Shown here one piece after another: positions 22,469 through 48,082 of a DNA stretch of 64,000 bases. Source of the stretch: an uncultured virus (IMG/VR IMGVR_UViG_3300049846_001141) (taxonomy: Duplodnaviria; Heunggongvirae; Uroviricota; Caudoviricetes); IMG/VR virus record IMGVR_UViG_3300049846_001141, one strand, 5' to 3'. The notes under the pieces are model-generated. The model was not told where the DNA came from. It made no database searches and saw nothing but the letters and a program-made list of their open reading frames with translations. The position numbers were made by a program, and so were the translations under genes. Numbering within the stretch: the stretch's first letter is position 1; each line of letters begins with the position of its first letter.

Positions 22469-22470
22469 AC

Positions 22471-22647
22471 TCAGAATTCAGTGTCAGTGGGGGTTTCGTC
22501 GGTTTTGGTGCGGCGGGTCTTGCGCACCAAGGGCTCGGGTTCGGGAGCGGGTTTGTCCTTTTCGTACAAGTTCTCGGCCCGCAACTCCACAAGTTGCCAC
22601 TTGTAGGTGCCGTCGGGCTGCAGAACTTTGTCTAGCGATTCGGCCAT
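22471..22647 (-). CDS. Small hypothetical protein (MAESLDKVLQPDG...)
   Basis: Read from the sequence; homologue at 63662-63856. Confidence 0.7.
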   Translation of the reverse strand: MAESLDKVLQPDGTYKWQLVELRAENLYEKDKPAPEPEPLVRKTRRTKTDETPTDTEF

Positions 22648-31240: not shown

Positions 31241-32080
31241 TTAGGCAGTCTCTTGAATGGCTTTCTGGAGATTTTCGAAATAAAGCTCCACCCGAGCCAT
31301 GAATGACTTTTCTGCGTCGGCGAGTTCACGAGCCGACATGTAATGAATGTTTGGCTGGCCGCAGCGGCGTGCCAAGACGATGGCTGCTCCAGTCGGTGAA
31401 AGGCCGGTCAGGTGCTTTAGTCCCAGTGAGTAGGCGCCACACTGGTCGATGTATGAATGGCCGTTGGGGAGGCGTTCTTGGCCGTCATGAATGGCCGTTT
31501 TGCGTCCCACGCTGGTCTTCCAGTCCGCTAGTACCAGCTCGTTATTTTTCATGCCGATTAAGGCGTCACACGTTCCAGCGAAGCCGGCGGGGTGATGAAT
31601 GGAAAATTCGCTGGCGAAAATCTCGGTGACGTTCTCGGCGATCCAGTCGGACAGGCTGCGGGCATAACCTGAGGCGCTCCAGCCAACTCGGGGGACATTG
31701 GGTCTTACCCGTTTGAGTGCCCACTGCGTTATGGGGGCAGGGATACGCGCCAGGCCCTGTTCGTCCCAGCGGATTGAATTGCGCTTGTTTGCAGTGGATC
31801 GCGCCAGCTGCATTGAGGTTTTGAGGAGATACTCAGCCTGTGAATGGGCCATGTTGCCTCGGGTGGCGGCAACATTGCGCTGTTGGGTGGCTTCGACTGG
31901 GCCGAGGCGGGCTTCCCAGCGCTCCAGCCCGGTTTTGTCGCTTGTTTCCTTTAGGATGTGTGTAACACTATGGTAGATATTGCCGTTTATGTCGCGGTAG
32001 ACCCGGAAGGGGCCTGAATTGTCTTGTTCCAGCCTCCATTTACGCAGTCCTGCCAGCGTGTCTTGGGTGTTGGAGGCCAT
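31241..32080 (-). CDS. PD-(D/E)XK exonuclease
   Basis: SVTHIL, RGN..H, AGTCD, LADWKTS, Q..AY motifs. Confidence 0.85.
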   Translation of the reverse strand: MASNTQDTLAGLRKWRLEQDNSGPFRVYRDINGNIYHSVTHILKETSDKTGLERWEARLGPVEATQQRNVAATRGNMAHSQAEYLLKTSMQLARSTANKRNSIRWDEQGLARIPAPITQWALKRVRPNVPRVGWSASGYARSLSDWIAENVTEIFASEFSIHHPAGFAGTCDALIGMKNNELVLADWKTSVGRKTAIHDGQERLPNGHSYIDQCGAYSLGLKHLTGLSPTGAAIVLARRCGQPNIHYMSARELADAEKSFMARVELYFENLQKAIQETA

Positions 32081-32157: not shown

Positions 32158-32739
32158 TTAAGCCGCTTTGAAAGGATTACCCCCGGTAAGCAGGCGGGTG
32201 ATATCGAAGCCTTCGGATTTGGCTTCTAGCCAGGCGGCGTCGATGTGCTCTTGGCTGCCCTTTTTGCGGGGTACGGGGCGCACGGTGTACTCAGTCAGCA
32301 GGCCCGAGCCCTTTTTGCCGATGGTGAAGTCCCACTCCAGCAGGTTTTCGTAGTCCTCCATCTGGGAGATCTGGTCGATTTCCTTGAGGATGGACTTTTG
32401 GGTGATCTGTAGGACTTGAACTTTGCCGGATTCGTAGTTGTAAACCGGGCAGGCGATGGCGAATTTCACGTCTGCGGTGCCGGGGCCGCCGCGGCCTTCA
32501 CGGGGTTCGTAGTCACCCATTTCGGCAACCACGTCTTCATAGGTGGGCTCGAAGTCGAAGCGGAAGGGCTTAGAGGCTCCGTTGGACTGGCCCCAGGATT
32601 CGTAGAACTCCAGAGGTTCGTCGGTGAGTAGGGCGAATCGGACAGAGCCACCGTCGGGCAGTTTGCTGAGGCTGAGGTAGCCGCCTCCTGTTGCATTAGA
32701 GGTGACTGCAGCGGAAGCGGTTTTGGAGAGAAATCCCAT
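32158..32739 (-). CDS. Probable ssDNA-binding protein
   Basis: Q.LQITQKSI...D..I.K.G.GL.TEY.V...NPF; next to the exonuclease. Confidence 0.6.
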   Translation of the reverse strand: MGFLSKTASAAVTSNATGGGYLSLSKLPDGGSVRFALLTDEPLEFYESWGQSNGASKPFRFDFEPTYEDVVAEMGDYEPREGRGGPGTADVKFAIACPVYNYESGKVQVLQITQKSILKEIDQISQMEDYENLLEWDFTIGKKGSGLLTEYTVRPVPRKKGSQEHIDAAWLEAKSEGFDITRLLTGGNPFKAA

Positions 32740-32879
32740 TGTGTTGGTGCTTTTGGATGGTCGCCCGAGGGCAACGTCTAACACAGTAACACGGGATTGA
32801 CTGGCTGGCTACCATGAGAAAACGCCCCACGGCCAGAAGGCTGCAGGGCGTGATGAACATTCTCGTGTGAGAGTCTAGC

Positions 32880-35315
32880 ATGTCTCAAGGTAAGACGCAG
32901 GAGCTGTTGGCGTTTGTGCGCCAGCTGCCTGCAGGAATCGCTTATGCCCCGATTTACGCCAAGGGCAAGGCGATCCAGTCCGGGAAAATCAGCAAAGGCA
33001 AGACGCCCTTAGAGCGCAGTCATCACACGGTGATGGCGCCTTCGGATGTGGCGCTTCAGATCGAGCGCAAGCCTGAGGTGTTCCAGGCAGTGGGTGCGTT
33101 TACTGGCGCTCGCAGTGCTGGACTCGTGATTCTCGATGTGGATCGGAATCTCAGCCGCCTGAAAAAGAAGTGGGGTGACTCGCTGGAGGGTGCTCCAGTC
33201 ATCACTTCGACTAAGGCCAACGCGGCGAAGTACCTGTTCCGCGTCCCAGAGGCTCTGTGGGCCTCGGTGAAGGGTTTTGGCCTGAGTGATACCGGCGCTG
33301 GGTATGAGGTGCTCTGGGGCCGTCAGGGGCTTCTCTACGGGGCTTATCCGGGCTCCAGTGATGGGAAGGCTCCGGCAGGCCATTACGGCTTTGAAGGCGA
33401 CATGGAGGCCATTCCGGTGGCTCCTGAGTGGCTGCTGGCGGAAATGCGGGATGCCAGTGGGAAGGATGTGCAGGATGGCGGCTTCATTAAGAACCGCAAG
33501 GCGCTGGATTTCTCGGATCGAGACCCGGCTGAGGTGGCTGAGATCATTCAGTCGGCGCTGCGGGTGATTCCCGGCCAAGGCAGTGGCAGCCGGGATCACT
33601 GGGTCAAGGTGGGGATGGCGATTCACTCGGAGTTGCCGACTGACCTCGGTTTGACGCTTTGGTCCGCTTGGTCTTCGGAAGACCCCGAATTTTTTCAGGA
33701 TTGGGCAGAAGGCAATCCCTGTGAAGAGGTTTGGAAATCCTTCCGCAAGGGGCCGGTGAGCCTTGGCTCGCTGTTCTGGCTGGCGGATCAGCAGATGCCT
33801 GGCCGCATGTGGCTTTCGGAGGATCTGCGGAAGGTTGTTTCTGAGGCTGAGCAAGATCGGGTGCAGCGGTTCCGCACCACCGGTCTTTCGCACGAAGAAA
33901 TCGTTAATCGCGCTACTGCTGCGATGGCGCTGCCGAATCCGTCGGAAGTGCAGCACAAGCTCCACGAGATCGCCCTGGAGGCTGGTTATCGGGAAGCTGC
34001 GGCTGTTGTGCGCTTGCTGATCGCAGACCAGGAGTACCGACGCGGATCACAGGGAGGCAGCCTGCAGGAAATTTTTGCCATGGAGGACGCGCCAATCGAG
34101 TACCTGATTCCCGATTTGCTGCCTAAGCCAGGCACTGTGTTGATCCACGGGCGTGGTGGCTGTGGCAAGACCATGGCGGTGCTGACGTTGGCTAAGCACA
34201 TCGCACGGGGGATTCCGTTCTCTGTACGCGGTGCAGAAGTGCCTGTCGAGCAGGGCAAGGTGCTGTGGCTTAACGGCGATCAGAACAGCCGCCGGATGCG
34301 TAAGCAGTTCAAGGACTTGGACTTCACTGCTGATGATCCGGTTGTAGTACAGAACAAAGTTTCGATGCTTTGGTATCCCTGGTTTATCCAGCAGATTGAG
34401 GAGCATCGCCCCAAGCTCGTGGTTTGGGATTCGGTAACCGCTTGTATGCGTGGTTGTGCGTACGACCAGAACAAGGCCGAATACGCCGAGCCGATCTACT
34501 GGTACAGCGCGGAAAACGGCGAGAGCTTCCCGGCAACCACCATCGTTTTCATCCACCATGCCGCCAAGAGCGGGGACTTCAGGGGCACCTCAGCGCTCCA
34601 AGACGCCGTGGATGAGTCTTGGGCTATCAACCGTCCGGAAAAGTCCGAGCTGGAACGTGTAGGGGCTTCTGCACGCCTCATCACCATCGGTAAAAGCCGC
34701 GAGGGTAATGAGGGCAAGCAACTGGTGCTGCGCCAGAAGGAAGACCTCACGTTCTCGCTCCAGGATCTACCGGCTGCGGAAGGCGTGGATTCCGCTGCAC
34801 CTGCCTCGATCATCGACCGGGTGCTCCAGCGGCTGCGTACCAAGGGCGTGCCGATGACTAAAGCCGAGCTGAACGCTGACCCTCTGCTGGGCGGCAGCGT
34901 CAACGCCATCTCGAAGTCGCTCCAGCGTTTGATCGACCGTGGGCTGGTCTCTGTTGAAGGAGAACGTTCCAGCAAGCGCTACTCAGCAGTTCTCGCGCGC
35001 AGGGGGGGAGGAGGTACAAGTTGTCCCAAAGAAGAAGAATCCAGTGCTGGAGCTGGATCTGAAGAAATGGCTTGTCCCACTTTGTCCCGTTCTGTCCCAA
35101 GTTGTCCCGAATTGGAGCCAAAACCGGCTTCTGGGACACCAAAAGGACAGGTTGGGACAAAACGGGACAAAACGGGACAGCTAAAAACGGCAGATCTATT
35201 GCAGCGCAACGTTTCTGAGAGTTTGGGACAAGAAGACAGCTCTATCTTCACGCGCGAGAACTGGCGCACTCCCGAAGAAATGGAGCGGCTTACAAAGGAG
35301 GCCGACATCTGGTAA
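32880..35315 (+). CDS. Primase-polymerase / PriCT-2 / RecA-like helicase replication protein
   Basis: ILDVD, W.KVGMA.H...WS, GRGGCGKT Walker A, WDS, HHAAK, FRGTSA. Confidence 0.85.
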   Translation: MSQGKTQELLAFVRQLPAGIAYAPIYAKGKAIQSGKISKGKTPLERSHHTVMAPSDVALQIERKPEVFQAVGAFTGARSAGLVILDVDRNLSRLKKKWGDSLEGAPVITSTKANAAKYLFRVPEALWASVKGFGLSDTGAGYEVLWGRQGLLYGAYPGSSDGKAPAGHYGFEGDMEAIPVAPEWLLAEMRDASGKDVQDGGFIKNRKALDFSDRDPAEVAEIIQSALRVIPGQGSGSRDHWVKVGMAIHSELPTDLGLTLWSAWSSEDPEFFQDWAEGNPCEEVWKSFRKGPVSLGSLFWLADQQMPGRMWLSEDLRKVVSEAEQDRVQRFRTTGLSHEEIVNRATAAMALPNPSEVQHKLHEIALEAGYREAAAVVRLLIADQEYRRGSQGGSLQEIFAMEDAPIEYLIPDLLPKPGTVLIHGRGGCGKTMAVLTLAKHIARGIPFSVRGAEVPVEQGKVLWLNGDQNSRRMRKQFKDLDFTADDPVVVQNKVSMLWYPWFIQQIEEHRPKLVVWDSVTACMRGCAYDQNKAEYAEPIYWYSAENGESFPATTIVFIHHAAKSGDFRGTSALQDAVDESWAINRPEKSELERVGASARLITIGKSREGNEGKQLVLRQKEDLTFSLQDLPAAEGVDSAAPASIIDRVLQRLRTKGVPMTKAELNADPLLGGSVNAISKSLQRLIDRGLVSVEGERSSKRYSAVLARRGGGGTSCPKEEESSAGAGSEEMACPTLSRSVPSCPELEPKPASGTPKGQVGTKRDKTGQLKTADLLQRNVSESLGQEDSSIFTRENWRTPEEMERLTKEADIW
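34990..35260. repeat. Symmetric iteron-like TGTCCC/GGGACA array (candidate origin)
   Basis: TGTCCC at 35022, 35073, 35083, 35093, 35103 mirrored by (G/A)GGACA ending at 35149, 35159, 35169, 35179, 35230. Confidence 0.75.
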
Positions 35316-35336
35316 ACGCGCTAAAGTGATGCGGTT

Positions 35337-35552
35337 ATGCACAGTTGTATGAACCGCATCACTGTTTCTTTTTCGGATGTGACCGCAAACGGCTTGGAGT
35401 GGCTATCCAAACGCACCATGCGCAAGCCCTCCAACCTGCTTGCTTTCCTGTTGAGTCAAGAAATTGAGCGCCAGTTGCAGGCCATGACTCATGAGGAACG
35501 CGCTGAGGTCTATGCACAGCTATCCGACGTTCGGGTTCTGTCTCCTCACTAA
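35337..35552 (+). CDS. Small DNA-binding-like protein (RHH-like)
   Basis: RITVSFSD...L..LSK...R..SNL pattern. Confidence 0.55.
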   Translation: MHSCMNRITVSFSDVTANGLEWLSKRTMRKPSNLLAFLLSQEIERQLQAMTHEERAEVYAQLSDVRVLSPH

Positions 35553-35560
35553 AACTCCCG

Positions 35561-35899
35561 ATGTTCAACCCGCCTAACTTTTTCCTAGGGCTCATGCGCG
35601 TCGTGGCATGGGCTTTTTGGAGAGATCCCGTGGCTAAGCCTGAACCGCCCCAGCCGAAGCGTCCCAGGAAGCCGATCCTGGGGTACACCGTTGGCGACAT
35701 TCCGTTTGAGCTGATGGCCGTGGTCCGGGTCTCCTGGTACCGCAAGGGCATGGCCTACGAAGTTGAGGAATACAAGATCGAGGAGTCCGAGGACGCCCAA
35801 GATCAGTTCCACTACGTCGTTGGCACGGCCCTCAAACAAGGCGCCGACGTGTGCGTGCTGACGCAGTACCAGCCGGAGGAGCTAGGGGTTCCAACGTGA
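35561..35899 (+). CDS. Hypothetical protein
   Basis: ORF with phage-like codon use. Confidence 0.7.
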   Translation: MFNPPNFFLGLMRVVAWAFWRDPVAKPEPPQPKRPRKPILGYTVGDIPFELMAVVRVSWYRKGMAYEVEEYKIEESEDAQDQFHYVVGTALKQGADVCVLTQYQPEELGVPT

Positions 35900-36069
35900 T
35901 CCCGCCCGTGATCGTGTTCGGGTTGACGTGGCTACTGGGGATGCTGGCAGTCACCGTCTACCTCACGCGGATGTAACGAAATGCGACAGCCCGGCCTTGC
36001 GGTTGGGCTGTTCGTGTGCAACACTAAGAGCACGCCCGGAGAGCGGGCGCCGTTACTACTGAATTACAA

Positions 36070-36309
36070 ATGGACACGTTGCACACTCCAATCGAAAACA
36101 CCAAGCTCAGTCCGTGGTTCTTCGCGGTCAACTGGGGCATCATCACGCTCCAGCAGAAGATCACTGAGATGGAGGCTCGCGGCCTCAACCCGATCTACGA
36201 CATCAAACAGCTGGAGCAGCTGCAGGATCTGGAGCAGTTCTTGAAGATGAGCTGGGACATGTGGCTGGCTCGTTATGAAACCAGCGAAACTGCACAGGAG
36301 GTCAAATGA
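36070..36309 (+). CDS. Hypothetical protein
   Basis: ORF; coupled to the next gene. Confidence 0.7.
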   Translation: MDTLHTPIENTKLSPWFFAVNWGIITLQQKITEMEARGLNPIYDIKQLEQLQDLEQFLKMSWDMWLARYETSETAQEVK

Positions 36310-36560
36310 AGGTACTGGACATTGAGGAGCTGCGATTTGAAGGCGACCATCTCGTTGTCGATGCCGTTGTTGATGACGCTGTTCTGGTCTATCCGCAGAC
36401 GCAACTCGACCCACCAGAGTGGGGGCCTGCCCTGTGCCGAGGCACCCTCTACTTTTCAGATGAAGACTTGATTCCAGCCACCGATGCCGAACTCCGAGCC
36501 ATGCTCACCGACCGCGTCGATGATTGGGCTCCAATCGACACGTCTGATTGGTACGACTGA
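36306..36560 (+). CDS. Hypothetical protein
   Basis: GGAGG SD; DPPEWGPALC motif. Confidence 0.75.
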   Translation: MKVLDIEELRFEGDHLVVDAVVDDAVLVYPQTQLDPPEWGPALCRGTLYFSDEDLIPATDAELRAMLTDRVDDWAPIDTSDWYD

Positions 36561-36810
36561 AGCCCGTGAGCTTCGTAACCAGCCTGAGTATGACGATTGG
36601 TATGCAGGATTGGAGCCAATCCCCGGCGATACCCACTGGGTCAGGATCAAAACTCTGACCCAGCTTTACCGCCACCTCATTTACGTGTTCGCCACAAGCG
36701 ACACCATCAGTTCCACCCGCTTAGCCAAGCTGGCCATCCACGAGATTCTCAAGTTGAGACTCACGGATCTCACCCGGTTGAGGCAGCAAGATCCAAACTT
36801 TTTTGCATGA
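36484..36810 (+). CDS. Hypothetical protein (start uncertain)
   Basis: ORF fills the gap; ATGA-type overlap downstream. Confidence 0.55.
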   Translation: MPNSEPCSPTASMIGLQSTRLIGTTEARELRNQPEYDDWYAGLEPIPGDTHWVRIKTLTQLYRHLIYVFATSDTISSTRLAKLAIHEILKLRLTDLTRLRQQDPNFFA

Positions 36811-36817
36811 GATTTCA

Positions 36818-37243
36818 ATGACTGACGCAGCTTTCAATCTCCAGCAACTGGAGAGTCGCTCTAACTGGTACGAGCACGTTGGTGCTGTCGAGCTGGCGAT
36901 GGGCCTGGATTACGAAAAGTGGTCGATTCGACAGGACTACGGCTGGGAAGGGGATGACGGTGGGGAGTGGGGACCCAACCCACTGGAGCCCGGTCAAGAC
37001 GTGCTGGAGTCGGACTGGTACGACACTTTGGCGCTACCGTTTCCCGAGGAGTTCCAAGCATGTGACTCCTACGTGTACGAGCTGATGGACACCATCGGTC
37101 AGTACAAGCACGATCCAGCGCTGATGGCGCACATGGTCGCGCTTCGCGCTGCTGATTACCTCGGCAACGTGGGGCACGACGAGACCATCAAAATCCGGAG
37201 CCAGCTCCGTAATTCCTACGTTGTTGAACACGCTGATGACTGA
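36818..37243 (+). CDS. Acidic hypothetical protein
   Basis: ORF. Confidence 0.7.
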   Translation: MTDAAFNLQQLESRSNWYEHVGAVELAMGLDYEKWSIRQDYGWEGDDGGEWGPNPLEPGQDVLESDWYDTLALPFPEEFQACDSYVYELMDTIGQYKHDPALMAHMVALRAADYLGNVGHDETIKIRSQLRNSYVVEHADD

Positions 37244-37493
37244 AAATTCGATGGTGCCGTTTTACCGTTCCTATTTGCTGAACGGGCGGACCATTTATTT
37301 GGACAAGCTTTCCGAGCTTTCGGACTCGGAGCTGCACCTTCTCAACGTTGACACCATGGCTGCGCTCCAAGAGGCGCGGCATGAGTACGACAACATCGAA
37401 AACAAGCAGTCCGAGGAAGCTCGTCCGGCATACCGCAGGCTGAAGGTGGCTGGTTATTTTCAGGCCGCTATCAAACTTGAACTACAAGATTGA
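37236..37493 (+). CDS. Hypothetical protein
   Basis: ORF overlapping the previous stop. Confidence 0.7.
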   Translation: MTENSMVPFYRSYLLNGRTIYLDKLSELSDSELHLLNVDTMAALQEARHEYDNIENKQSEEARPAYRRLKVAGYFQAAIKLELQD

Positions 37494-37521
37494 TCAGTTC
37501 TACACACTACGAGGTTCACGA

Positions 37522-37890
37522 ATGACTCAAGAACACCCGATCACCCCACCGCCTGAGCTCGTGAAGCAGTGGCGAGAAATGCCTGAGTATGCCAGCATCT
37601 CAGAAAAGCTTTTCACAGTCAATATCACAACAAACAAGCTTCAAGACATCGCCACCCAAGCCGCCCGCTGGGGCGCTGATCAGGAGCTGGAGGCGTGCTG
37701 TGAGTATGAGGCAACGGTTTATTCAACCGACTGTGCAGACGGTCTCCGTCGCCATCGCCGCCCCGAGCCGCCGAGCTTGAAGGAGCAGGCATTAGCGGCG
37801 TTAGACGAAGCGGTAATGCGTGGTGACTGCATCACTGTCTCTGACGCATTGCGGCCCATCCGCCGCGCACTTGAATCCCTACCTGATTAG
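37522..37890 (+). CDS. Hypothetical protein, cassette-like ORF 1
   Basis: GAGG SD; MTQEHPITPPPEL; TAG stop forms the left arm of TAGT-N7-ACTA. Confidence 0.75.
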   Translation: MTQEHPITPPPELVKQWREMPEYASISEKLFTVNITTNKLQDIATQAARWGADQELEACCEYEATVYSTDCADGLRRHRRPEPPSLKEQALAALDEAVMRGDCITVSDALRPIRRALESLPD

Positions 37891-37908
37891 TCAACATCAC
37901 TAACCACC

Positions 37909-38118
37909 ATGACTGACTTTTGTTTATCCGTCGATTCTCCAGATAGCTCTTCTATCAGTTTCCATATGAGCCCGGCTTCTGAGGAAGTCATCCGAATCGA
38001 CGCCAAAGGCTTCCATTACCGAGGCCAGTTCATCGCTGATGCAGGCGAAGCGCACCGTTTATTGGTGGAGTTTCTACGCAAACACCAACCAGATACTGAC
38101 TGGCAACACGCCGAGTAG
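37909..38118 (+). CDS. Hypothetical protein, cassette-like ORF 2
   Basis: EVIRID.KGFHYRGQFIADAGEAHRL; starts 6 bp after a site and stops in the next. Confidence 0.7.
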   Translation: MTDFCLSVDSPDSSSISFHMSPASEEVIRIDAKGFHYRGQFIADAGEAHRLLVEFLRKHQPDTDWQHAE

Positions 38119-38132
38119 TCCGATCAACTCCG

Positions 38133-38330
38133 ATGTCTGAGTTTCCATTTATCTACGTCTGCAGCCACGCAGGGAAGATCGGTAATTTCCGCTGGGTCAA
38201 TTCAGACACCCGCTGGCCAGACTGGATTCACAGGCGTTGGATTGGCTCAGCAATGCGGAAGGGTTACTGGGGCCGTTGCGGTTTAGTCAACCCTCCGGGA
38301 TCTCCAGATAGTTCCCCGCCGCTTCCTTAG
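38133..38330 (+). CDS. Hypothetical protein, cassette-like ORF 3
   Basis: Starts 2 bp after a site and stops in the next. Confidence 0.6.
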   Translation: MSEFPFIYVCSHAGKIGNFRWVNSDTRWPDWIHRRWIGSAMRKGYWGRCGLVNPPGSPDSSPPLP

Positions 38331-38420
38331 TCAAACCCACTAGCCAGCTCCTAATTTCCGCCTAATTAGGAGTTGACACAGACCCGCTCTTCCCTACTAC
38401 ACTGCACACGTTCCAAACCG

Positions 38421-38825
38421 ATGAACATGTACATCCTTTCGGAAGCTCAGTTTGATCAGGTCATCAAAGCTCTTGATGCTGCTCGCTTTGCTCTTGATAC
38501 GTGCCAGCACGTTGAGCTGGATCTGACCAATCCCAAGCAGACGATCCCGCTGCCCGCTGGCGAGAAAATTGTACGTACAACTGCCGTACGCCAGTCTCAA
38601 AGTAAGACTCGTAAGTCCAGCCGCAAGGGACAGCGTGGGGTGGCGGTGTTGACTGAGGCGAAGGTGCTGGAAATCAAGCGCCAGTTGGCTGCGGGCGGGA
38701 AGTCGGTGGCCAAGATCGCTAAGGAGTTTGGCGTGCACTCCACGACGGTGAATTGCATCAAATGGGGCCGCACGTGGAAACACGTTGTGCTCCAGCAGGA
38801 AACCGTTGCCACTGCGGCGGCGTGA
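38421..38825 (+). CDS. HTH DNA-binding protein
   Basis: LTEAKVLEIK...IAKEFGV...TVNCIK.GRTWKHV; TTGACA at 38373. Confidence 0.75.
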   Translation: MNMYILSEAQFDQVIKALDAARFALDTCQHVELDLTNPKQTIPLPAGEKIVRTTAVRQSQSKTRKSSRKGQRGVAVLTEAKVLEIKRQLAAGGKSVAKIAKEFGVHSTTVNCIKWGRTWKHVVLQQETVATAAA

Positions 38826-39334
38826 GCATCCTGTGTGACATTGACATTCACACGTTGGCGAGGAGGGAGCTTGTTACTCCCTTCGATCCAGCCCTGGTGA
38901 ATCCCGCGAGTCTCGATGTGAGACTCGGTGAGAATTTGCTGGTGGAGTTACCGACGACTTCCAGCTTGGTGCCCTATTCCATTGCTGGGCACACGCAGGA
39001 AAAGCCGTTCATGCTCCAGCCGCATGAGTTCGTTCTGGCTGAAACGCTGGAGGAGTTCAAGCTGCCTGACTGTATTGCTGGGCAACTGGCGCTCAAGTCG
39101 AGCCGGGCTAGGGAAGGTATCGAGCATTTGCTTGCTGGATACATAGATCCTGGTTATAGCGGGAGACTGACGCTGGAATTGCAAAATGCGCGTTCCATGC
39201 ACCCCGTTGGTCTATGGCCTGGGATGCGGATTGCACAGATTGTGTTCCATCGGATGACGATGCTGCCCAGCAAGGACTACTCCCACACTGGGAGGTATCA
39301 AGGAGACAAAACCGTTCAGGCTTCTAAAGGATGA
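38822..39334 (+). CDS. dcd: dCTP deaminase
   Basis: NPASLDVRLG, KSSRAREG, AGYIDPGYSGRLTLEL, RIAQ, YQG. Confidence 0.9.
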   Translation: MSILCDIDIHTLARRELVTPFDPALVNPASLDVRLGENLLVELPTTSSLVPYSIAGHTQEKPFMLQPHEFVLAETLEEFKLPDCIAGQLALKSSRAREGIEHLLAGYIDPGYSGRLTLELQNARSMHPVGLWPGMRIAQIVFHRMTMLPSKDYSHTGRYQGDKTVQASKG

Positions 39335-40861: not shown

Positions 40862-42688
40862 TTGGACTTTCTTCTTGGCATCGAGCATCTCCACACGCTC
40901 GACGATGAACGGCTGATCGCGTTTGACTCGGAGACGACGCAGCTCCAGCCGAAGATGGGTGGGATGCGGCTTTTGCAGTTGGGTGCTCCAGGCAAACAGC
41001 CTGTGGTGCTCGACTGCTTTGATTTGGACGACAACGACTGGATCACAGTCGAAGAGTTTTTCGGTGTAGAGCGCACTTGGGTGGCGCACAACGCGGTGTT
41101 TGATCTCGGCTGGCTGCAAGAGCACGAGATTTATCCGGCGGGCAAAGTGTTGTGCACCATGCTGGCGAGTCGGATTCTTACCAACGGGATGCCCAACGTG
41201 AAGCACGGGCTCCAGCACTTGGTAAAACGCTACCTGCACGAGGATATTTCTAAGGAAGAGCAGAAGAGCGATTGGTCGGGTGATCTGACCGAGAGCCAGC
41301 TGGAATATGCGGCAAAGGATGTGTTGGTGTTGTTGGATTTGTTTGATCAGATCCAGCAGAGGATGGCGACGGCTGCGCTCCACCCGGCTTGGTATCTGGA
41401 GTGCAATGCGTTGCCAGCTATGGCGCAGTTGTGGCGAACTGGCCTTCCTTTTAATGAGAAAGACCTAAAGCAGTTGATTGAAGATCTCGATATTGAGCAT
41501 TACGAAGTAGGCGAAAAGTTTATTGAGGATTTTGATGCTGCACTGTCCGAAGGTGACAAGCTGTGCCGTGGGATTGATGGGAAGTTGCTGTACCAGACAA
41601 AGCCTGGGCCGAAGGGTAAAAAGGTCGATCCAAACGTGTTCAACCTCAATAGTCCGGCGCAGCTGTTGAAAAAATTCACTGCGTTGTTGGGCGAGGCGCC
41701 GATTGACGCAAAGAACGGAAAGCCCAGTGCTAGTCGGATGGCGCTCCAGGAATATGTTGGGGATCACAAGATTGTGGCTGATTATTTGCGGTGGAAAAAA
41801 GTTGAAAAGAAGCGCCAGATGGCGGAGTCGTTATTGAAAAGTTTGGCGAAGGATGGGTTTATTCGTGCCAGCTATATGCAAATGGGGGCTGATACCGGAA
41901 GGATGAGTTGCATGAGTCCCAACTTGCAACAGATTCCAAGGGATCAACGGTTTAGGGCTTGTGTTCAAGCGCCAGAAGGATGGAAATTTGTGGTGGCGGA
42001 CTATGGGCAGATGGAGTTGAGGTTGGCGGCGGCGGAAGCTAAGGATTCTCTTATGACTCAGGTGTTCCAGCAGGGGAAAGACCTTCATACGATTACGGCG
42101 ACGCAGATTTATGGGGTCGCAGAGGGTGAAGTTACAAAGGAGCAGCGTCAGATCAGTAAGTCGGCGAATTTCGGGTTGCTCTATGGCTCGGGTGCAAAAG
42201 GACTCCGAAACTATGCGGCCTCGACCGGAGTACAGATGGATCTTGCTGAGGCTGCGGAAGTGCGGGAAAAGTTTCACGCTGCATATAAAGGCATCTCCGC
42301 ATGGCAGCGCAAAAATGCTCGCGATGCTGATGCGGCTAAGGACAATCCATCTATCCGCATACGCATCTCGGGCTTGCGGCGGTTTTTACCGGGCGAGAAC
42401 AACAAACTCACCACGCGCTGTAATACACCAATCCAAGGGGCTGGTGCAGCAGTCCTCAAACTTACTCTCGGCAAATTGTGGCCGTTACTCCACGCCGACG
42501 GGGAAGATGTTGTGCGCTTGGCCGGCGTGGTGCATGACGAGATCATCTTGCTCGTCGCTGAAGAACACGCCGACACTTGGGCGCTCCAGCTGCAATCCGT
42601 GATGGAAGAGTGTGAGGCGAAGTGGTTAGGCGAGATTCCGCCGCTTGCCGAAGCTAAGGTCGGGGATAGCTGGGATCAGGCGAAGTGA
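40862..42688 (+). CDS. polA: DNA polymerase family A with 3'-5' exonuclease
   Basis: FDSET, HNAVFD, YAAKD, PNLQQIP, DYGQMELR, KSANFGLLYG, VHDEI. Confidence 0.95.
   Translation: MDFLLGIEHLHTLDDERLIAFDSETTQLQPKMGGMRLLQLGAPGKQPVVLDCFDLDDNDWITVEEFFGVERTWVAHNAVFDLGWLQEHEIYPAGKVLCTMLASRILTNGMPNVKHGLQHLVKRYLHEDISKEEQKSDWSGDLTESQLEYAAKDVLVLLDLFDQIQQRMATAALHPAWYLECNALPAMAQLWRTGLPFNEKDLKQLIEDLDIEHYEVGEKFIEDFDAALSEGDKLCRGIDGKLLYQTKPGPKGKKVDPNVFNLNSPAQLLKKFTALLGEAPIDAKNGKPSASRMALQEYVGDHKIVADYLRWKKVEKKRQMAESLLKSLAKDGFIRASYMQMGADTGRMSCMSPNLQQIPRDQRFRACVQAPEGWKFVVADYGQMELRLAAAEAKDSLMTQVFQQGKDLHTITATQIYGVAEGEVTKEQRQISKSANFGLLYGSGAKGLRNYAASTGVQMDLAEAAEVREKFHAAYKGISAWQRKNARDADAAKDNPSIRIRISGLRRFLPGENNKLTTRCNTPIQGAGAAVLKLTLGKLWPLLHADGEDVVRLAGVVHDEIILLVAEEHADTWALQLQSVMEECEAKWLGEIPPLAEAKVGDSWDQAK
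42275..42420 (+). repeat. Exact 146-bp direct repeat, copy 2
   Basis: Identical to 1-146. Confidence 0.95.
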
Positions 42689-42867
42689 GCCCCGAACAGG
42701 TCGTCGAAGACTACGAATACCGAGTGCGGATGCACCCGCGCCACGGTGGTACGCACGACCTGTTTGTTACTGCTCCAGATGCTTTCACCGCGAGGATGAG
42801 GGCTCTGGAGCTTTGTCCTGATCAGCACGTTCAGTCGATCTTGAGAGTCTCAGAGTTAGACGCATGA
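42685..42867 (+). CDS. Hypothetical protein
   Basis: Homologue of 411-581. Confidence 0.7.
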   Translation: MSPEQVVEDYEYRVRMHPRHGGTHDLFVTAPDAFTARMRALELCPDQHVQSILRVSELDA

Positions 42868-43079
42868 GTCTCCCGCGGACAGGTAGAGAACTTGTGATGG
42901 AGTGGTTGATGCGGGAGATTCGGCAGGCGAAGACTGCGGATTTGCATCGGGCTGCGGCGTTTCTGGAGTGGGCGCGGGGTATTCGGAAAGGCTGTACCAA
43001 GCAGCGTTCCAGTGCAAGGGCGGCGCAGTCCAATGCTTGGCGGAAGGATGTGGATGATGACGTGCGCTGGCGGGTCTAG
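42864..43079 (+). CDS. Hypothetical protein
   Basis: Homologue of 578-793. Confidence 0.8.
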   Translation: MSLPRTGRELVMEWLMREIRQAKTADLHRAAAFLEWARGIRKGCTKQRSSARAAQSNAWRKDVDDDVRWRV

Positions 43080-43122
43080 TGTGTCGCAGTATGCTACTGT
43101 GTAGCAGACTAGAGAAGCAGCA

Positions 43123-43398
43123 ATGCCGCTGAAGCACGGGTCAAAAATTTATTGCCAGTTGCTGCTTGACAGCCATCGCTACAAATTGGCCGAGCAGCTT
43201 GCAGCCAGTGAAGGCAAGCGGGTAACTGGAATGTTGAGGGATATGGTTTACGCCGCTTTGGAGAAGGCTGTTCCAACGTCGGATTACAAGGCTGCGGAAG
43301 CTGCTGATAAGGCGGCCTGGGCGGAGTCGGTGCAACGGCGGGTACAGGGAAGGATGCGCTCCAAGCAAGAAGGAAGTGGGTTAGAGCAAGACGCATGA
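43123..43398 (+). CDS. Hypothetical protein
   Basis: Homologue of 837-1112. Confidence 0.75.
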   Translation: MPLKHGSKIYCQLLLDSHRYKLAEQLAASEGKRVTGMLRDMVYAALEKAVPTSDYKAAEAADKAAWAESVQRRVQGRMRSKQEGSGLEQDA

Positions 43399-43476
43399 GA
43401 CTTAGTGAAATGTCTTCATAGTCTGGTTCCAACAGGCTAAACTTACTAGGCTTACACAGTAAATCATTTGAAGGTA

Positions 43477-43692
43477 ATGACGCGCTATGTCGTCATGGTT
43501 GAAGATCGCTGGGTTACGGCGGTTTACGGCCCTGGCAAAGGTATTGGTCTCACCGCATCCAAGGAAGATGCATCCAGCTGGGTTACGTACGAACGAGCTA
43601 TCGCTGCGGCGCGAGCTGTTGCTGAGTGCACTAACAGCAACGTTGCTGTTCATAGCGTCGATGAACCCACCTACCCCAAATCATGGAAGTAA
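43477..43692 (+). CDS. Hypothetical protein
   Basis: Homologue of 1191-1406. Confidence 0.75.
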   Translation: MTRYVVMVEDRWVTAVYGPGKGIGLTASKEDASSWVTYERAIAAARAVAECTNSNVAVHSVDEPTYPKSWK

Positions 43693-44000
43693 CTCCGTTC
43701 CAGCAACAACTCGACCCTGAAGTTCGTCTTGGCGAGGGACGTTCACGTACCAGTGCTGAAAAGACTGAGCTGTTTGAATTGAAGATTTGGCTGCCTGGTC
43801 AAGGCGCTATGCGGGATTTGGTGCGAGCAGAGTCTCTCCAGCAGGCTTTGCTATTTGCAGCAAATCGTTACCCGAATTGCAAGGTGGAGGTGCCGTCACA
43901 GGCGGCAAAAAAACCTAGGCTGGTGCGCTCGAACAATGGGCCGAAAGAATCGGCCCGGCGTCGTCTCAAACTAGTGGAGAGTAAAAATGAACAACCCTGA
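43683..44000 (+). CDS. Hypothetical protein
   Basis: Homologue of 1397-1714. Confidence 0.8.
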   Translation: MEVTPFQQQLDPEVRLGEGRSRTSAEKTELFELKIWLPGQGAMRDLVRAESLQQALLFAANRYPNCKVEVPSQAAKKPRLVRSNNGPKESARRRLKLVESKNEQP

Positions 44001-44160
44001 ACTTGCTGATTGGGCTCGGCAGAACTGGGGCCAAGTGATCGTCGATCATTCCCGGATGGATCTGCTCGAAAAGTTGTATGAGTGGGATGGGCGCTCCAAT
44101 CCAGAGCATCCAAATCACCACACGTATACAGGTTTGTACGAAAAGTACAGCCAGCGTTAG
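43987..44160 (+). CDS. Hypothetical protein
   Basis: Homologue of 1701-1874. Confidence 0.75.
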   Translation: MNNPELADWARQNWGQVIVDHSRMDLLEKLYEWDGRSNPEHPNHHTYTGLYEKYSQR

Positions 44161-44378
44161 GCCGAATTGCGGTCTAACCCGAATTGATCGGCCAGGTTAT
44201 CGGCGGCTTCGCGGATAGCCCAGGCCGATTTTGTTCGTTCCAGCTGGTGGAGTGTGTTCAATACAAGAGCTGCTTCCAAGAGGCCGCGATAATCTTGGCG
44301 GTTAAAAAGATCCACCAGCCATTTGTCGGTGGCGGCTTTGTGGAAGCTGGATTCAGCGGTGTGTTCGATGGGGCGCAT
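44157..44378 (-). CDS. Hypothetical protein
   Basis: Homologue of 1871-2092. Confidence 0.8.
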   Translation of the reverse strand: MRPIEHTAESSFHKAATDKWLVDLFNRQDYRGLLEAALVLNTLHQLERTKSAWAIREAADNLADQFGLDRNSA

Positions 44379-44380
44379 AG

Positions 44381-45508
44381 CTACCTAGGGCGAACTTTTA
44401 AGAACCAGCCGGTGTCATTGCCTTCGATGAGCCAGCGAGGCAGCCAGTTTTTGCGGGAATACGCAACACCAGCGCCTCCCTTGTTACTGACGTAGCCGCC
44501 AGTAGTCAGGTTGGCCTCGCCAAATGGATCGTTGTGGATGAAATGCGTCGGCGTAAATCCGATCACTGCGCTCCAGTGGCCTGTACCACTTGGGTTGCTG
44601 ATGGGTCCTTTGTGTAGCCAGCCGACTGGTACGGGGTAGCCGTGAGTAATTTCGGTTTCTAGGTCTTCGACTGTTCCATCCATCTCAAAGGTGGCGGTTA
44701 GTCCCAGTGATTTCAGTGCTGCAATCTGGGCTTTGGGATCGGTGGTGTCGCCGAAACGAGCGCGGATCTTGTTGTACTCGTAGTCGCCAGAGATTTTGCC
44801 GTAGTAGCGGGCCACCATTGCACAGCTGGAGCTAAAGCACTGGCGATAACCCGTTGCTCCATCGTCTGGTCCGAGCTGGTACTCGTACGCGACCTTGAGG
44901 ATTTTTTCTTTTGGTGCGACCAGTGGTTTCGTGCCAGCGTGCTGGTTCATTAGTTCGATTAACTTACCTGGATAATTTGGATCTGTTGCATATCCTTCTT
45001 TATGTAACCATTTGGCAGCTTCGTCGCGGGTTGCAGCGTTATTGCAGCCTTTGTAGTTTTTGAAGTCTTTGTACCAGTGGTCGACTAGGTACATCACGCA
45101 GGACAGCAGATCGGGAAAGTCGATAAAGCTGTCGGTGATCGTGACCCACTGACCGTTGATGAATTCTTGGGTTTTCTTGTCGCTGCCTTCGCCCTTAAGA
45201 CCAAAAAAGTTATTTCTCCCGGAGACTAGTTTTCCGTAGTTGGATTCCAGTGCCCATTGGGCGGCTACTAGTTCAGGGAATTTGGCGCCGGCAACGCGGG
45301 CGGCTTCAAGAATTCCTTCCCAGCTGTTGGGGAAGTTAGTTTGTTTGCCGGCAACGCTCCAGGTTTTGAACCAGCCTTGGTCGCGACCAAGAATATGGGG
45401 GTTGGCCTTATTGATCGCGGCCTCTAGCTCGGTCAGCGCGGCTGCTTGATGAGGCAGCTGGCGATAATACCGAAAGAGGTCAATCAGGCGGATCTTGTTG
45501 GTTGGCAT
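44381..45508 (-). CDS. Endolysin (GH73-like plus C39-like)
   Basis: Homologue of 2095-3222. Confidence 0.85.
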   Translation of the reverse strand: MPTNKIRLIDLFRYYRQLPHQAAALTELEAAINKANPHILGRDQGWFKTWSVAGKQTNFPNSWEGILEAARVAGAKFPELVAAQWALESNYGKLVSGRNNFFGLKGEGSDKKTQEFINGQWVTITDSFIDFPDLLSCVMYLVDHWYKDFKNYKGCNNAATRDEAAKWLHKEGYATDPNYPGKLIELMNQHAGTKPLVAPKEKILKVAYEYQLGPDDGATGYRQCFSSSCAMVARYYGKISGDYEYNKIRARFGDTTDPKAQIAALKSLGLTATFEMDGTVEDLETEITHGYPVPVGWLHKGPISNPSGTGHWSAVIGFTPTHFIHNDPFGEANLTTGGYVSNKGGAGVAYSRKNWLPRWLIEGNDTGWFLKVRPR

Positions 45509-45770
45509 CGGACCAGGGGGAGTGGATATTCATGGCGCCACCCAGAAGGCGGCTTTCGCCGGTTTGTAGTTCGTCATTTGGTGGTTCGTGAACCACAACG
45601 GGTTTTGGTGTTAATGGCTGATCCGCGTGCCAGTCTTCGATGGCGCGATCCAGGCGTGGTTTGAGCGTGGCGTTGAATTTGTGGTCCTGCGCTGCTTTGC
45701 GTAGGTGATCGCGCCAGCCCTTGTCGCCGAATCGCGCCAGCCAAACTGTGTTGGATCTCAGCGCTTTGGG
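45480..45770 (-). CDS. Start-less ORF, probable -1 frameshift extension of the holin-like gene
   Basis: 97-codon frame entered at C CCA AAG; in-frame TAA just upstream; no early ATG/GTG/TTG. Confidence 0.6.
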   Translation of the reverse strand, partial: PKALRSNTVWLARFGDKGWRDHLRKAAQDHKFNATLKPRLDRAIEDWHADQPLTPKPVVVHEPPNDELQTGESRLLGGAMNIHSPWSDANQQDPPD

Positions 45771-45895
45771 AAAAGCACTTTCAGCGCTTTAATGATCAGC
45801 TGGATCCAGCTGTTCTCTTTGACCGGGAGGATTGCGATGATCTCGGAGCCGGCGGCAACCAAGATTGCAATCACGGCTGCGGTGGTGGGATCCAT
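45758..45895 (-). CDS. Small membrane protein, holin-like (45 aa)
   Basis: MDPTTAAVIAILVAAGSEII...LFPKR. Confidence 0.7.
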   Translation of the reverse strand: MDPTTAAVIAILVAAGSEIIAILPVKENSWIQLIIKALKVLFPKR

Positions 45896-45994
45896 AGGAA
45901 GTAAGGATTCTTGGCAAAGTTTAGCTGTACTAAAGAAGAGATCCAGTGCGCGTAATAGTTTCTACCGCTACATTCTGTGGAGCCACTGCTGGGT

Positions 45995-46312
45995 ATGGAC
46001 CATCGCATCGAGGATGGCGAATACTTAAACAAAAAGGAAGCAAAGGCGCGATTTAGGCAATCAATTCTTAAACATTGGGAGAACAAGTGTGCCTACTGTT
46101 CTACAGATTTAGGTAGGTCGGCGACGCTGGATCACGTTCACCCCAAGATGCGGGGTGGTCATACGCACCAGCAGAATCTGGTGGCTTGCTGTTTTGCTTG
46201 CAATATCTCGAAGTCGGCCGAGGACTGGATTGAGTGGTACAGGCAGCAGGATTTTTGGGAGCCGTACCGCGAGGATGCAATCGTGCAGTGGATTACTGGT
46301 GGTCTGCTTTAG
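45995..46312 (+). CDS. HNH endonuclease
   Basis: Homologue of 3484-3801. Confidence 0.9.
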   Translation: MDHRIEDGEYLNKKEAKARFRQSILKHWENKCAYCSTDLGRSATLDHVHPKMRGGHTHQQNLVACCFACNISKSAEDWIEWYRQQDFWEPYREDAIVQWITGGLL

Positions 46313-46475
46313 GGTCCCAGCCCATGCCTTCGAGATACATCATCGCGATGTAGTGGTCTTCGGCATAGCGGCAGACGCTGTTTAAACAGGCGCGGTAGTA
46401 CAGTTCGCCCCGCTCGTTTTCCAGTTGGTCTAGGGTGTAGCCGTTGTCGAAATCAGTGGTGTTGACGACGCTCAT
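46293..46475 (-). CDS. Hypothetical protein
   Basis: Homologue of 3782-3964. Confidence 0.75.
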   Translation of the reverse strand: MSVVNTTDFDNGYTLDQLENERGELYYRACLNSVCRYAEDHYIAMMYLEGMGWDPKADHQ

Positions 46476-46480
46476 TTGTT

Positions 46481-46726
46481 TTACCGGCCAACTTTCATTT
46501 CAATCTGGCGCACTCTACTTTCAAGATCGCTAAGCCTTTCTTTGGAATCGTTCTTGAGTTCTTGAATATCGGCGGCTACTGTACTAACTGATTGATCCAG
46601 TTTGGCTACCTGCATAAAAAGACCGCCCAGCCCGATGACCGCAGCGGTCAAAAGAGCTGGCACGGCTTGGTTAAATGGGTTGGGGTGTTCAGGCGCTGCG
46701 GCGTAAACCTCTTCGTGGTTGTCCAT
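46481..46726 (-). CDS. Membrane-anchored coiled-coil protein
   Basis: Homologue of 3961-4215. Confidence 0.7.
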   Translation of the reverse strand: MDNHEEVYAAAPEHPNPFNQAVPALLTAAVIGLGGLFMQVAKLDQSVSTVAADIQELKNDSKERLSDLESRVRQIEMKVGR

Positions 46727-46757
46727 TGCGAGGCATACTGCCAACCTTTTTTATAGG

Positions 46758-46892
46758 TTAGCGTCCTTGACCTCTTAGCTTTTTGCGCCCGTGATTGGGC
46801 AGGCTGTTTTGTCCTTGACCCTGGCGCGTTTTCTTGGGACGGCCGGGTTTGTGGTCGAGGCGCCCCAGTGCGGTTTTGGATTTAACAGCCAT
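46758..46892 (-). CDS. Small basic protein
   Basis: Homologue of 4247-4384. Confidence 0.75.
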   Translation of the reverse strand: MAVKSKTALGRLDHKPGRPKKTRQGQGQNSLPNHGRKKLRGQGR

Positions 46893-47233: not shown

Positions 47234-48082
47234 TCATAATACCGGCATTTCGTACTCTTGTGTAGTATTGCAGTAGTGCTTAAAAATCACTTCGCTAGTG
47301 TTTCCAGCCCACGCCGCTACCTGTGGTACGGGAATCCCTGCTTCAATCCAGCGGCTTATAGCTGTGTGTCGGCAATCGTATGGTCGATACACATGCGAAA
47401 TTAGCTCTGCCTGCTTAAGCGGGGATAGCTTTTTACGGAAGTAACTCTGAAAAGCCAATCTATTCCACGGGAAGATAAACTTATCGGTTTTTGGTAAATC
47501 TTCCAAGATTTCTACGCAGCGCTGATTCAGAGGAACCCATCGCTTTTTATTTGTCTTTGTGCTGTTTTTTAGTCCGTGAGTAAGTGTGTAGTTTTGATGA
47601 ACAAGAATTTTATTGTCTTTTATGTCGTCCCACATAAGGGAACGCACTTCGCCAGTACGCATTGCAGTCTGCAACATAAATTCCGTGTAGCTAGCCCAGT
47701 TGACGTGACGGTAAGTTTGTTTACCTTCTAGTGCTGCTAGTACCAAGCCCACTTCGTTTCTAGGTATAACAACTATCTCCTCATCTTTTTGTGGGGCTTT
47801 TGGCATTTTGAAGCTGGCGAGAGGGTTGCGTTCCAGCAGAGCAACGTCTTCCTGAGCAGCCCACTTGTACATGGTTTTTAGATACATGGCCACGCGCCTG
47901 GCCGTTAAGACTGGTTGCTGCTGCAAGACCCAGATCATGATTTGCCTTGCTTGAGCCGGGTCTTGTATTGGGCACTGGGCCAGTCGCTTCGATACCTGCC
48001 GATAATCCGACGTAAGGCTGGTAGGGCATAAGGAAATGGAGCGCTCTTCCAGGAAGGCGCTCCAGAGATCATTCAATTTCAC
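47234..48082 (-). CDS. Tyrosine recombinase (integrase family; no arm-binding domain evident)
   Basis: TAMRTGEV (R), STKT (K), PYDCRHT (Y-x-x-R), WAGN, FKHY (Y). Confidence 0.9.
   Translation of the reverse strand: MKLNDLWSAFLEERSISLCPTSLTSDYRQVSKRLAQCPIQDPAQARQIMIWVLQQQPVLTARRVAMYLKTMYKWAAQEDVALLERNPLASFKMPKAPQKDEEIVVIPRNEVGLVLAALEGKQTYRHVNWASYTEFMLQTAMRTGEVRSLMWDDIKDNKILVHQNYTLTHGLKNSTKTNKKRWVPLNQRCVEILEDLPKTDKFIFPWNRLAFQSYFRKKLSPLKQAELISHVYRPYDCRHTAISRWIEAGIPVPQVAAWAGNTSEVIFKHYCNTTQEYEMPVL

Follow-up and report, generated by a model that had tools for sequence, protein, structure and literature searches.

Directional 14-nucleotide linkers between accessory genes in two variable loci of freshwater Synechococcus-type phages

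The early gene array and the genome that carries it

The window analysed here, a stretch of 64,000 nucleotides (nt) from an uncultured tailed virus (IMG/VR record IMGVR_UViG_3300049846_001141), contains at 37221-38825 an array of small early genes that are separated by copies of one short motif, which we call linkers. An earlier note, made from the sequence alone, had described the array as a set of integron-like one-gene cassettes. Three small open reading frames (ORFs) each end in the TAG of a TAGTC-N6-ACT site and a degenerate fourth copy of the site precedes the first of them, at the coordinates given in that note. The locus is built up as follows (aa, amino acids; E, expectation value; dG, folding free energy; HTH, helix-turn-helix).

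37221-37493, plus strand: gene of 90 aa, the conserved left anchor, which adjoins the HTH gene in relatives (tblastn, 59-100% identity)
37495-37509, plus strand: degenerate copy of linker A, CAGTTCTACACACTA, preceding ORF1
37522-37890, plus strand: ORF1, 122 aa, in slot A-B; phrog_32006, function not known (PHROG E 2.5e-23)
37888-37901, plus strand: linker B, TAGTCAACATCACT, its TAG being the ORF1 stop; the 15-nt site is TAGTCAACATCACTA (37888-37902)
37909-38118, plus strand: ORF2, 69 aa, cassette in slot B-C; 79 related stretches
38116-38129, plus strand: linker C, TAGTCCGATCAACT, its TAG being the ORF2 stop; the 15-nt site is TAGTCCGATCAACTC (38116-38130)
38133-38330, plus strand: ORF3, 65 aa, cassette in slot C-D; 17 related stretches
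38328-38341, plus strand: linker D, TAGTCAAACCCACT, its TAG being the ORF3 stop; the 15-nt site is TAGTCAAACCCACTA (38328-38342)
38345-38375, plus strand: hairpin of 12 pairs closing the array, a portable terminator-like module (dG -16.2 kcal/mol, z -4.35)
38373-38403, plus strand: promoter-like element before the HTH gene, read from the sequence as TTGACA, 16 nt, TACTAC(ACT)
38421-38825, plus strand: HTH gene, the conserved right anchor (66-93% identity among the loci kept)

ORF2 starts 6 nt and ORF3 2 nt behind the preceding 15-nt site, and the consecutive sites B, C and D are spaced by 228 and 212 nt. Linker A reads TAG[T/A]TCTACACACT in the relatives, where the TAG is the stop of the gene upstream. 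Only 4 of the 17 early-gene junctions listed for the window carry the motif, and these are the four of the array. The 90-aa gene found no family in Pfam and PHROG searches; the HTH gene matches Pfam HTH_23 below the cut-off, and its PHROG matches are the HTH parts of HNH endonucleases. A scan of 35200-39200 with the sigma-70 consensus gave no promoter-like site and did not flag the TTGACA element at 38373-38403, in line with the earlier description of promoterless one-gene units, which all have a single orientation and vary in content among relatives. Three terminator-like matches were found in the same region, all on the minus strand and no more than in shuffled sequences. For the closing hairpin, 8 pairs are predicted in 17 relatives, with a compensatory change at one of them. 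Contigs from RNA libraries match parts of the array without differences (e.g. 37673-38145 in X16), which is no proof of transcription.

The window consists of a phage genome of about 41-42 kilobases (kb) in more than 1.5 tandem copies, which are not identical and are here called units A and B. Repeats between the units are spaced by 40.9-42.5 kb and are 69-94% identical (e.g. 1-4273 with 42275-46784, and 16362-22490 with 57225-63681); complete relatives measure 39.8-45.7 kb and have direct terminal repeats. The tandem copies may represent an assembly chimera, a heteroconcatemer or tandem prophages. Unit A encodes on the minus strand the late genes (terminase, DUF4055 portal-like, capsid-like and tail proteins) and on the plus strand an early block of primase-helicase, small ORFs, HTH, dCTP deaminase, DUF3310, ThyX and DNA polymerase A. 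The closest isolates by DNA are Synechococcus phages, in short stretches only, and the linkers belong to a large set of freshwater Synechococcus-type tailed phages.

Linkers join unrelated genes in a fixed scaffold

The palindromic form TAGT-N7-ACTA, on which the earlier note was based, occurs five times in the window without mismatch (37888, 38328, 48144, 48940 and 58883), against a mean of 0.27 in 100 shuffled sequences, none of which reached five. The estimate of fewer than one perfect match per 64 kb against five seen was therefore sound, and all five positions were recovered. With one mismatch there are 30 matches, compared to 10.9 expected and 23 in the richest shuffle. Two of the five perfect matches probably fall outside the linker family: the one at 48940 lies within the tail-fibre ORF, and the one at 58883 overlaps a -10-like CTACACT behind a terminator hairpin and has a unit A homologue (17707) without TAGTC. 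All six TAGTC-N6-ACT sites of the window lie on the same strand as the large neighbouring ORFs.

The palindrome is thus overrepresented, as had been proposed, but its arms are not the unit that is conserved across relatives. The conserved unit is a directional 14-mer on the coding strand, TAG-T-C-N5-CACT. In 106 deduplicated loci (658,601 nt, 98 unique sites) TAG-N7-CACT has 103 copies on the gene strand and 15 on the opposite one, whereas the other spacings of TAG and CACT from N3 to N13 have 6-15 copies each. The enrichment is about 7- to 17-fold relative to these spacings and about 7-fold relative to the opposite strand. Among the 98 sites, the prevailing bases are T at position 4 (74 sites), C at position 5 (77) and A at position 6 (59); CACT is followed by A in 58 and by T in 27, and the palindromic arm positions do not co-vary. 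The TAG ends an open frame of at least 40 codons at 75 sites and is not the stop of a long frame at the other 23. As the true stop precedes the TAG by 1-8 nt at some sites, the motif cannot be reduced to a stop codon. At 80 sites an ORF of at least 35 codons begins no more than 57 nt behind the motif, the gap peaking at 14, 18-19, 21 and 24 nt.

Several candidate functions of the motif were tried and rejected. The four linkers of the array, whose spacers measure 14-28 nt, do not fold (z -0.75, +0.80, +2.52 and +1.19), and a stable hairpin or attC-like structure was accordingly discarded. A genome-wide operator-like distribution was rejected as well: strict TAGTC-N6-ACT sites number 0-3 per relative genome, no more than the 0-4 of the reversed control. 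Inspection by eye for a three-frame stop signal, a promoter for leaderless mRNA, a -35 box on the reverse strand or a mimic of the 3' end of 16S rRNA yielded none that is valid for all linker types.

Eight 14-mers recur among the sites, each of them in 4-16 unique contexts. Core C, TAGTCCGATCAACT, was found in 16 unique contexts with 13 gene families upstream and 7 downstream, and core B in 15 contexts with 11 downstream families, an ORF1-family gene lying upstream in 13 of the 15. When sites with the same core are compared in pairs, 232 of the 430 pairs share neither flank, 120 only the left, 68 only the right and 10 both; for core C, 110 of 120 pairs are alike in the 14-mer only. A flank was counted as shared when 30 nt showed at least 60% ungapped identity, by which some related flanks may be missed; the chance control for flank similarity gave 2 of 20,000. 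The linkers are thus nodes that join unrelated genes.

The linker types also follow each other in a fixed order. A<B<C<D is kept in all 19 loci with at least two typed linkers, also in four (L006, L031, L037 and L039) where the genes around the array are not those of the window. An ORF1-family gene occupies slot A-B in 10 of 11 loci. The 13 loci with a slot B-C all differ in its content, one of these slots being empty, and the 9 loci with a slot C-D show 7 contents. Depending on the slot, the linker behind a family of 101-aa proteins is C, D or another core, and that behind the 'SPAA' family is C or D. As one gene family is followed by another linker when it occupies another slot, the linker is part of the scaffold and not of the gene; types A, B, C and D form a fixed scaffold with phage-specific slot content. 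A pair of loci, L036 and L041, differs by an extra 86 base pairs (bp) plus linker C directly behind linker B in L036.

Two queries supplied relatives of the early locus: ORF1, with at least 610 related stretches in viral contigs, and the HTH protein, with 182; 80 were kept for each. Between the 90-aa gene and the HTH gene they show 43 distinct junctions: 24 empty, 3 short and 16 with inserts. In the empty junctions, of 30-34 nt, the stop of the 90-aa gene is almost immediately followed by CTACTACACTGCAC and the HTH start, and this element is kept before the HTH gene in all relatives, empty sites included. The short junctions measure 48-90 nt, and one of them (L113) has a linker, the hairpin and the promoter with zero cassettes. 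The 16 inserts, of 375-3216 nt, carry differing sets of small ORFs. One RNA-library contig has the empty-site form, in which 9 letters of other sequence connect 37487 with 38390. The genes between the two anchors therefore vary in number, order and identity, as the earlier note had anticipated, and homology breaks at the edges of the motif.

The breakpoints were located by BLAST of the window locus against the other arrays. Homology stops at 37509/37510, the right edge of site A, in L087 and L099, and in six loci where linker B ends (37900/37901); it begins at 38116, the first base of linker C, in L084, in five loci where linker D starts (38327/38328), and in six at 38365-38373, where the hairpin ends and TTGACA starts. 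A segment common to L084 and L092 is 100% identical, beginning inside core B and stopping on the last base of core C. In public sequencing runs, compared as assembled contigs (23 runs listed), contigs of run X6 change to other sequence at 38338 and 38340, inside the CACT of linker D. Breakpoints also lie in other conserved islands, namely inside ORF1, at a 3'-end remnant of the 'SPAA' family just before the linker behind the 101-aa gene, and at TTGACA.

Two alternative genes of the early locus deserve mention. In L084 (2736-3317, plus strand) a 194-aa homing-type endonuclease gene with HNH_3 and AP2 domains replaces the 3' end of an ORF1-like gene. Because its right junction lies inside core B, double-strand breaks close to linkers are a possible stimulus of exchange. 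A 109-aa protein with a DPBB_1 domain (RlpA-like lytic transglycosylase) is encoded in L090 (1432-1758), with homologues in L084, L088, L091, L092 and L105. Its gene is an alternative cassette that directly follows the 90-aa gene and precedes linker A, and the N-terminus of the protein resembles a signal peptide by eye.

Homologues of the array ORFs are found with and without the motif. The ORF1 family comprises at least 610 related stretches in viral contigs, with up to 5 copies per locus (L063). Its unique 3' ends carry the motif in 28 of 99 cases and lack it in 71, and 53 of the 99 end in TGA. In the ORF2 family the motif was found at the stop in 21 of 49 and upstream in 6 of 49, the stop lacking it in 28; in the ORF3 family a linker lies just upstream in 9 of 11 unique contexts and the gene ends in TAG plus T in 7 of 11. 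The proposed association of these ORFs with the motif is thus strong but not obligatory. In Synechococcus phage S-H1, whose genome is complete, the ORF1 homologue likewise carries a linker B copy at its 3' end, the only clean motif on the gene strand of the early block.

As to the proteins themselves, ORF1 gave no match in Pfam and NCBIfam searches; its AlphaFold2 model is all-helical (predicted local distance difference test score, pLDDT, 81.4) and found no match in the PDB with Foldseek at E <= 0.001. A profile search of genome contigs with the ORF1 alignment yielded only 7 contigs of metagenome-assembled genomes with mixed taxon labels, which point to neither a host nor a prophage setting. 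The family (phrog_32006) is a mosaic of the four conserved islands HPITPPPEL, WGADQELEACC, RRPKPPSLKEQAL and IRRALExLPD with three hypervariable segments between. Many of the 53 TGA-type ends (by eye; loci L009-L143) read ...GATGACTGA, with the stop overlapping an ATGACTGA start and the next gene beginning with MT[D/E]. This ATGACTGA-type overlap of stop and start may be a second conserved gene boundary and another exchange point.

A second variable locus is found behind the tail-fibre gene, where the window has the following features.

48243-48233, minus strand: remnant of linker F, TAGTCCCCTTC, 1 nt behind the tail-fibre stop
48158-48144, minus strand: linker E of the late variable locus, TAGTCCACGTCACTA; the GTG start of the integrase (48082) follows 62 nt downstream
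47234-48082, minus strand: tyrosine integrase of unit B (PF00589, E 3.1e-15; phrog_1), an alternative content to the right of linker E

The exact 15-mer of linker E occurs in 25 viral contigs, of which 14 are relatives. The other 11 were set aside before analysis: L166, L167, L171, L176, L179 and L183 have one other common flank pair, and L168, L173, L175, L184 and L185 have flanks unlike those of the phage group and may be chance matches. In the 14 relatives linker E lies behind the tail-fibre gene, with 7 left-flank and 6 right-flank classes. The site that the earlier note had pointed out beside the integrase is thus of the same motif family and itself a mosaic junction. The order at the late locus is tail-fibre gene, linker F, a variable part, linker E, and then a DUF7936 gene or the integrase. 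Linker F has its full form, TAGTCCCCTTCACT, behind the tail-fibre genes of L165, L174, L177, L180 and L182, and reads TAGTCCCCTTCACC in L170. Between F and E there is nothing, a hairpin module like that at 38345-38375 (found behind the tail-fibre gene in L177 and L182), or one or two small ORFs; in L170 this is an ORF3 homologue (71% identity, E 5e-28). From this homologue, the hairpin module and the F and E linkers it follows that the early and the late locus share cassettes, a terminator module and a linker family. In unit B the F remnant and linker E are followed by the integrase, whereas unit A has unrelated genes there, and the late loci of the two units show no relatedness beyond about 4354/46862.

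A few observations were made elsewhere in the window. In both units, terminator hairpins that precede late genes are followed by GCGCTACACT (minus strand; 17700-17720, 20530-20545, 58880-58897 and 61730-61745), which looks like a -10-type late promoter element common to both. A similar element, CTACTACACT, precedes the HTH gene in all relatives. The tail ORF of 1138 aa in unit B (minus strand, 54852-58268) has three tandem 87-nt repeats at 57569-57829 (identity 68-71%). Rfam gave no match in the window at gathering thresholds, and ARAGORN one doubtful tRNA-like match (55662-55738, plus strand, anticodon TTA, 'Stop'), which lies inside and antisense to this tail ORF and may be spurious.

Proposed exchange at the linkers and its alternatives

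The reading that we favour, with about even confidence, is that the sites are directional 14-nt boundary linkers, which separate accessory genes in two hypervariable loci and allow these genes to be exchanged slot by slot. Co-infecting relatives would exchange genes by recombination at the short linkers, and further recombination points would be the conserved termini of two abundant gene families, ORF1 and 'SPAA'. The agent may be general recombination or one encoded by the phage, which has a PD-(D/E)XK exonuclease (31241-32080) and adjoining it a gene (32158-32784) that matches PHROG families annotated as binding single-stranded DNA; such a pair would be the usual make-up of a phage recombination module. 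The expected outcome is slot-wise gene replacement. Like-with-like exchange would explain why the A-B-C-D order is unbroken, and breakpoints in ORF1, in the 'SPAA' remnant and at TTGACA are what homology-guided exchange predicts. The linker may also aid expression, its TAG usually stopping the upstream ORF, while the short, G-poor and unstructured spacer would permit translation of the next ORF in a promoterless operon that is closed by the hairpin and the TTGACA-type promoter.

Several points weigh against this reading. A length of 14 nt is short for homologous recombination. The ends TAGTC and CACT are common to the linker types while the centres differ, which homology alone does not explain and which may point to some factor that recognises the motif. 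The right-hand module (hairpin, leaders) stands behind at least four linker types, always directly after CAC(C)T, where only 4-5 nt are common. Arrays are found in the closer relatives (HTH identity 76-93%; L018 74%) and most empty sites in distant ones (66-84%), so that the pattern is partly clade history. Exchange, finally, is deduced from the comparison of assembled contigs. With the common ends and the CAC(C)T junctions, a factor that cuts the motif or one that reads it in expression remain as rivals.

The motif might mainly be an expression signal, with recombination incidental, although we regard this as unlikely. It would then be an operator-like site of the stoperator type, at which a phage DNA-binding protein influences transcription along the operon, or an RNA-level signal (processing, termination-reinitiation) of accessory early genes, and junctions would cluster at the motif since only exchanges that preserve the signal survive. 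The strict co-orientation with transcription (103 against 15) is in agreement with this, as are the fixed distance from motif to stop beside a variable distance to the next start, the conserved ends with free centres and the HTH gene directly downstream; stoperators likewise are asymmetric 13-bp intergenic sites oriented with transcription (PMC3029335). Against this, the motif lacks a dispersed distribution: the strict sites are no more frequent in relative genomes than the reversed control, and in the window the motif marks only a minority of the early junctions. Moreover, relatives with empty sites keep the HTH gene without the motif there, the TAG is not a long-frame stop at 23 of 98 sites, and identical centres in unrelated contexts point to descent and exchange rather than to convergent selection.

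A dedicated site-specific cassette system appears still less probable. Here a recombinase would recognise the TAGTC and CACT ends and cut at the right CACT edge, so that units of leader, ORF and linker are inserted and excised, possibly by a phage tyrosine integrase in cis or in trans, and the centres would restrict exchange to like sites. Such an enzyme would account for junctions placed precisely behind CAC(C)T, also where the two linker types have no more than 4-5 nt in common, for conserved ends with variable centres in more than 8 recurrent linker types, and for the 86 bp plus linker C by which L036 differs from L041; linker E, besides, lies 62 nt upstream of the integrase gene both in unit B and in L169. 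No recombinase, however, is linked to the arrays. Unit A has no integrase homologue, as tblastn with the unit B integrase gives only the self match 47237-48082, and the array-bearing relative G002 (68% complete) has no integrase match either. Four complete or near-complete relatives show all combinations: arrays occur in G003 (no integrase) and G004 (integrase), empty sites in G005 (no integrase) and G006 (integrase). The integrase is thus no guide to the array here, although four relatives are far too few for a test. The arms are only 4-5 nt long, are not inverted repeats and do not co-vary, and the linkers do not fold. The unbroken order in 19 of 19 loci, linkers that do not travel with the genes and breakpoints inside coding islands also speak against it.

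In its most far-reaching form, which we consider a long shot, the system would be a natural platform for cassette exchange, in which sites of 14-15 nt with TAGTC and CACT[A] ends and type-specific centres are read, and cut at the CACT edge, by a phage or host enzyme. If true, single-gene units could pass from slot to slot, from one of the two loci to the other and from one phage lineage to another, as a minimal phage counterpart of integrons with the logic of heterospecific sites. Chance, or the simple shared ancestry of one operon in which the motif has no special role, can be dismissed: two of the five perfect palindromic matches do look coincidental and some ORF homologues lack the motif, but five matches against 0.27 expected, the enrichment in spacing and strand, single 14-mers in up to 16 unrelated contexts and the fixed linker order make it highly improbable.

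Phages have mosaic genomes, but that they exchange modules at short conserved linkers is an old idea with few clear examples so far. In the present case dozens of small, unrelated genes meet at members of one defined family of 14-nt sequences, in two loci, in a fixed scaffold order and in contigs from several hundred related stretches of the viral collection. Since S-H1 carries a copy of linker B, both the linker model and its rival with a dedicated recombinase are directly testable in cultured relatives. The linkers also provide a rule for delimiting accessory-gene slots in genomes of uncultured cyanophages and, if they prove usable in experiments, could serve as natural landing pads for gene insertion.

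Comparison with known systems

The motif was not described in the literature searched, also when the linker 14- and 15-mers were used as text (supplements were outside the scope). The array resembles an integron in its promoterless single-gene units, which all face the same way and have a site at their 3' ends, in content that varies between relatives, and in junctions at one edge of a short conserved core. Integron attC sites are imperfect inverted repeats of roughly 57-141 bp that fold as single strands and have conserved core sites (GTTRRRY). The sites found here, on the contrary, measure 14 nt, have neither a fold nor a GTTRRRY core and do not move with the gene, their order is fixed, and no intI gene is adjacent. 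The unit B integrase gave weak Xer-type matches far below the cut-offs in NCBIfam and no integron-integrase model above its cut-off; NF040815 (site-specific tyrosine recombinase/integron integrase) scored 18.4 bits against a cut-off of 220. The integron-like mechanism of the earlier note is therefore unsupported, given the unfolded spacers of 14-28 nt, the fixed order A-B-C-D, linkers that do not travel with the genes, an integrase that is independent of the arrays in the four relatives and is not of the integron type by NCBIfam, and the many ORF homologues without the motif. The cassette idea was right in substance.

Heterospecific lox and FRT sites, as used in recombinase-mediated cassette exchange, and the pdif modules of Acinetobacter plasmids are 28-34 bp long and have inverted recombinase-binding arms and a known enzyme. 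The linkers follow the same logic, with similar ends around type-specific centres that would confine exchange to like sites and give slot-wise replacement, but differ in arms that measure 4-5 nt and are not inverted, and in having no known enzyme.

Short conserved boundary or 'linker' sequences reportedly figured already in the modular theory of phage evolution of Susskind and Botstein and of Clark et al. As in that model, the sequences described here are conserved at module junctions with unrelated flanks (232 of 430 same-core pairs, against 2 of 20,000 in the control) and would permit homologous exchange. They go beyond it in being explicit and recurrent (8 cores in 4-16 contexts each), in having a common consensus and in their fixed order.

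The stoperators of cluster A mycobacteriophages number 24-34 per genome, have one consensus and are bound by the immunity repressor (PMC3029335). Like these, the linkers are asymmetric and 13-14 bp in size, lie close to stop codons in short intergenic regions and are oriented with transcription. Unlike the tens of genome-wide stoperators, they are few per genome, confined to two variable loci and variable in their centres.

The promoter-early stem-loops (PeSLs) of T4-type phages are exchange points between unrelated sequences in hyperplastic regions, and mini-circles have been demonstrated for them (Arbiol et al. 2010, PMC2839356; Comeau et al. 2014, PMC4122927). The linkers are comparable as short conserved intergenic elements in hyperplastic regions of small ORFan genes, where they mark exchange points between unrelated sequences, and the closing hairpin with its TTGACA promoter (38345-38403) is a PeSL-like composite of terminator and promoter. 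Unlike in the PeSLs, no composite of promoter and stem-loop stands between the ORFs: the linkers between cassettes are 14-nt elements that overlap the stop codon and occur in several ordered types, and the genomes are cyanobacterial and siphophage-like, of about 40-46 kb, instead of T4-like myoviruses. The array thus lacks defining features of integrons, PeSLs and stoperators alike. Functionally, the linkers resemble the modular shuffling mediated by PeSLs and also the classical model of conserved boundary sequences.

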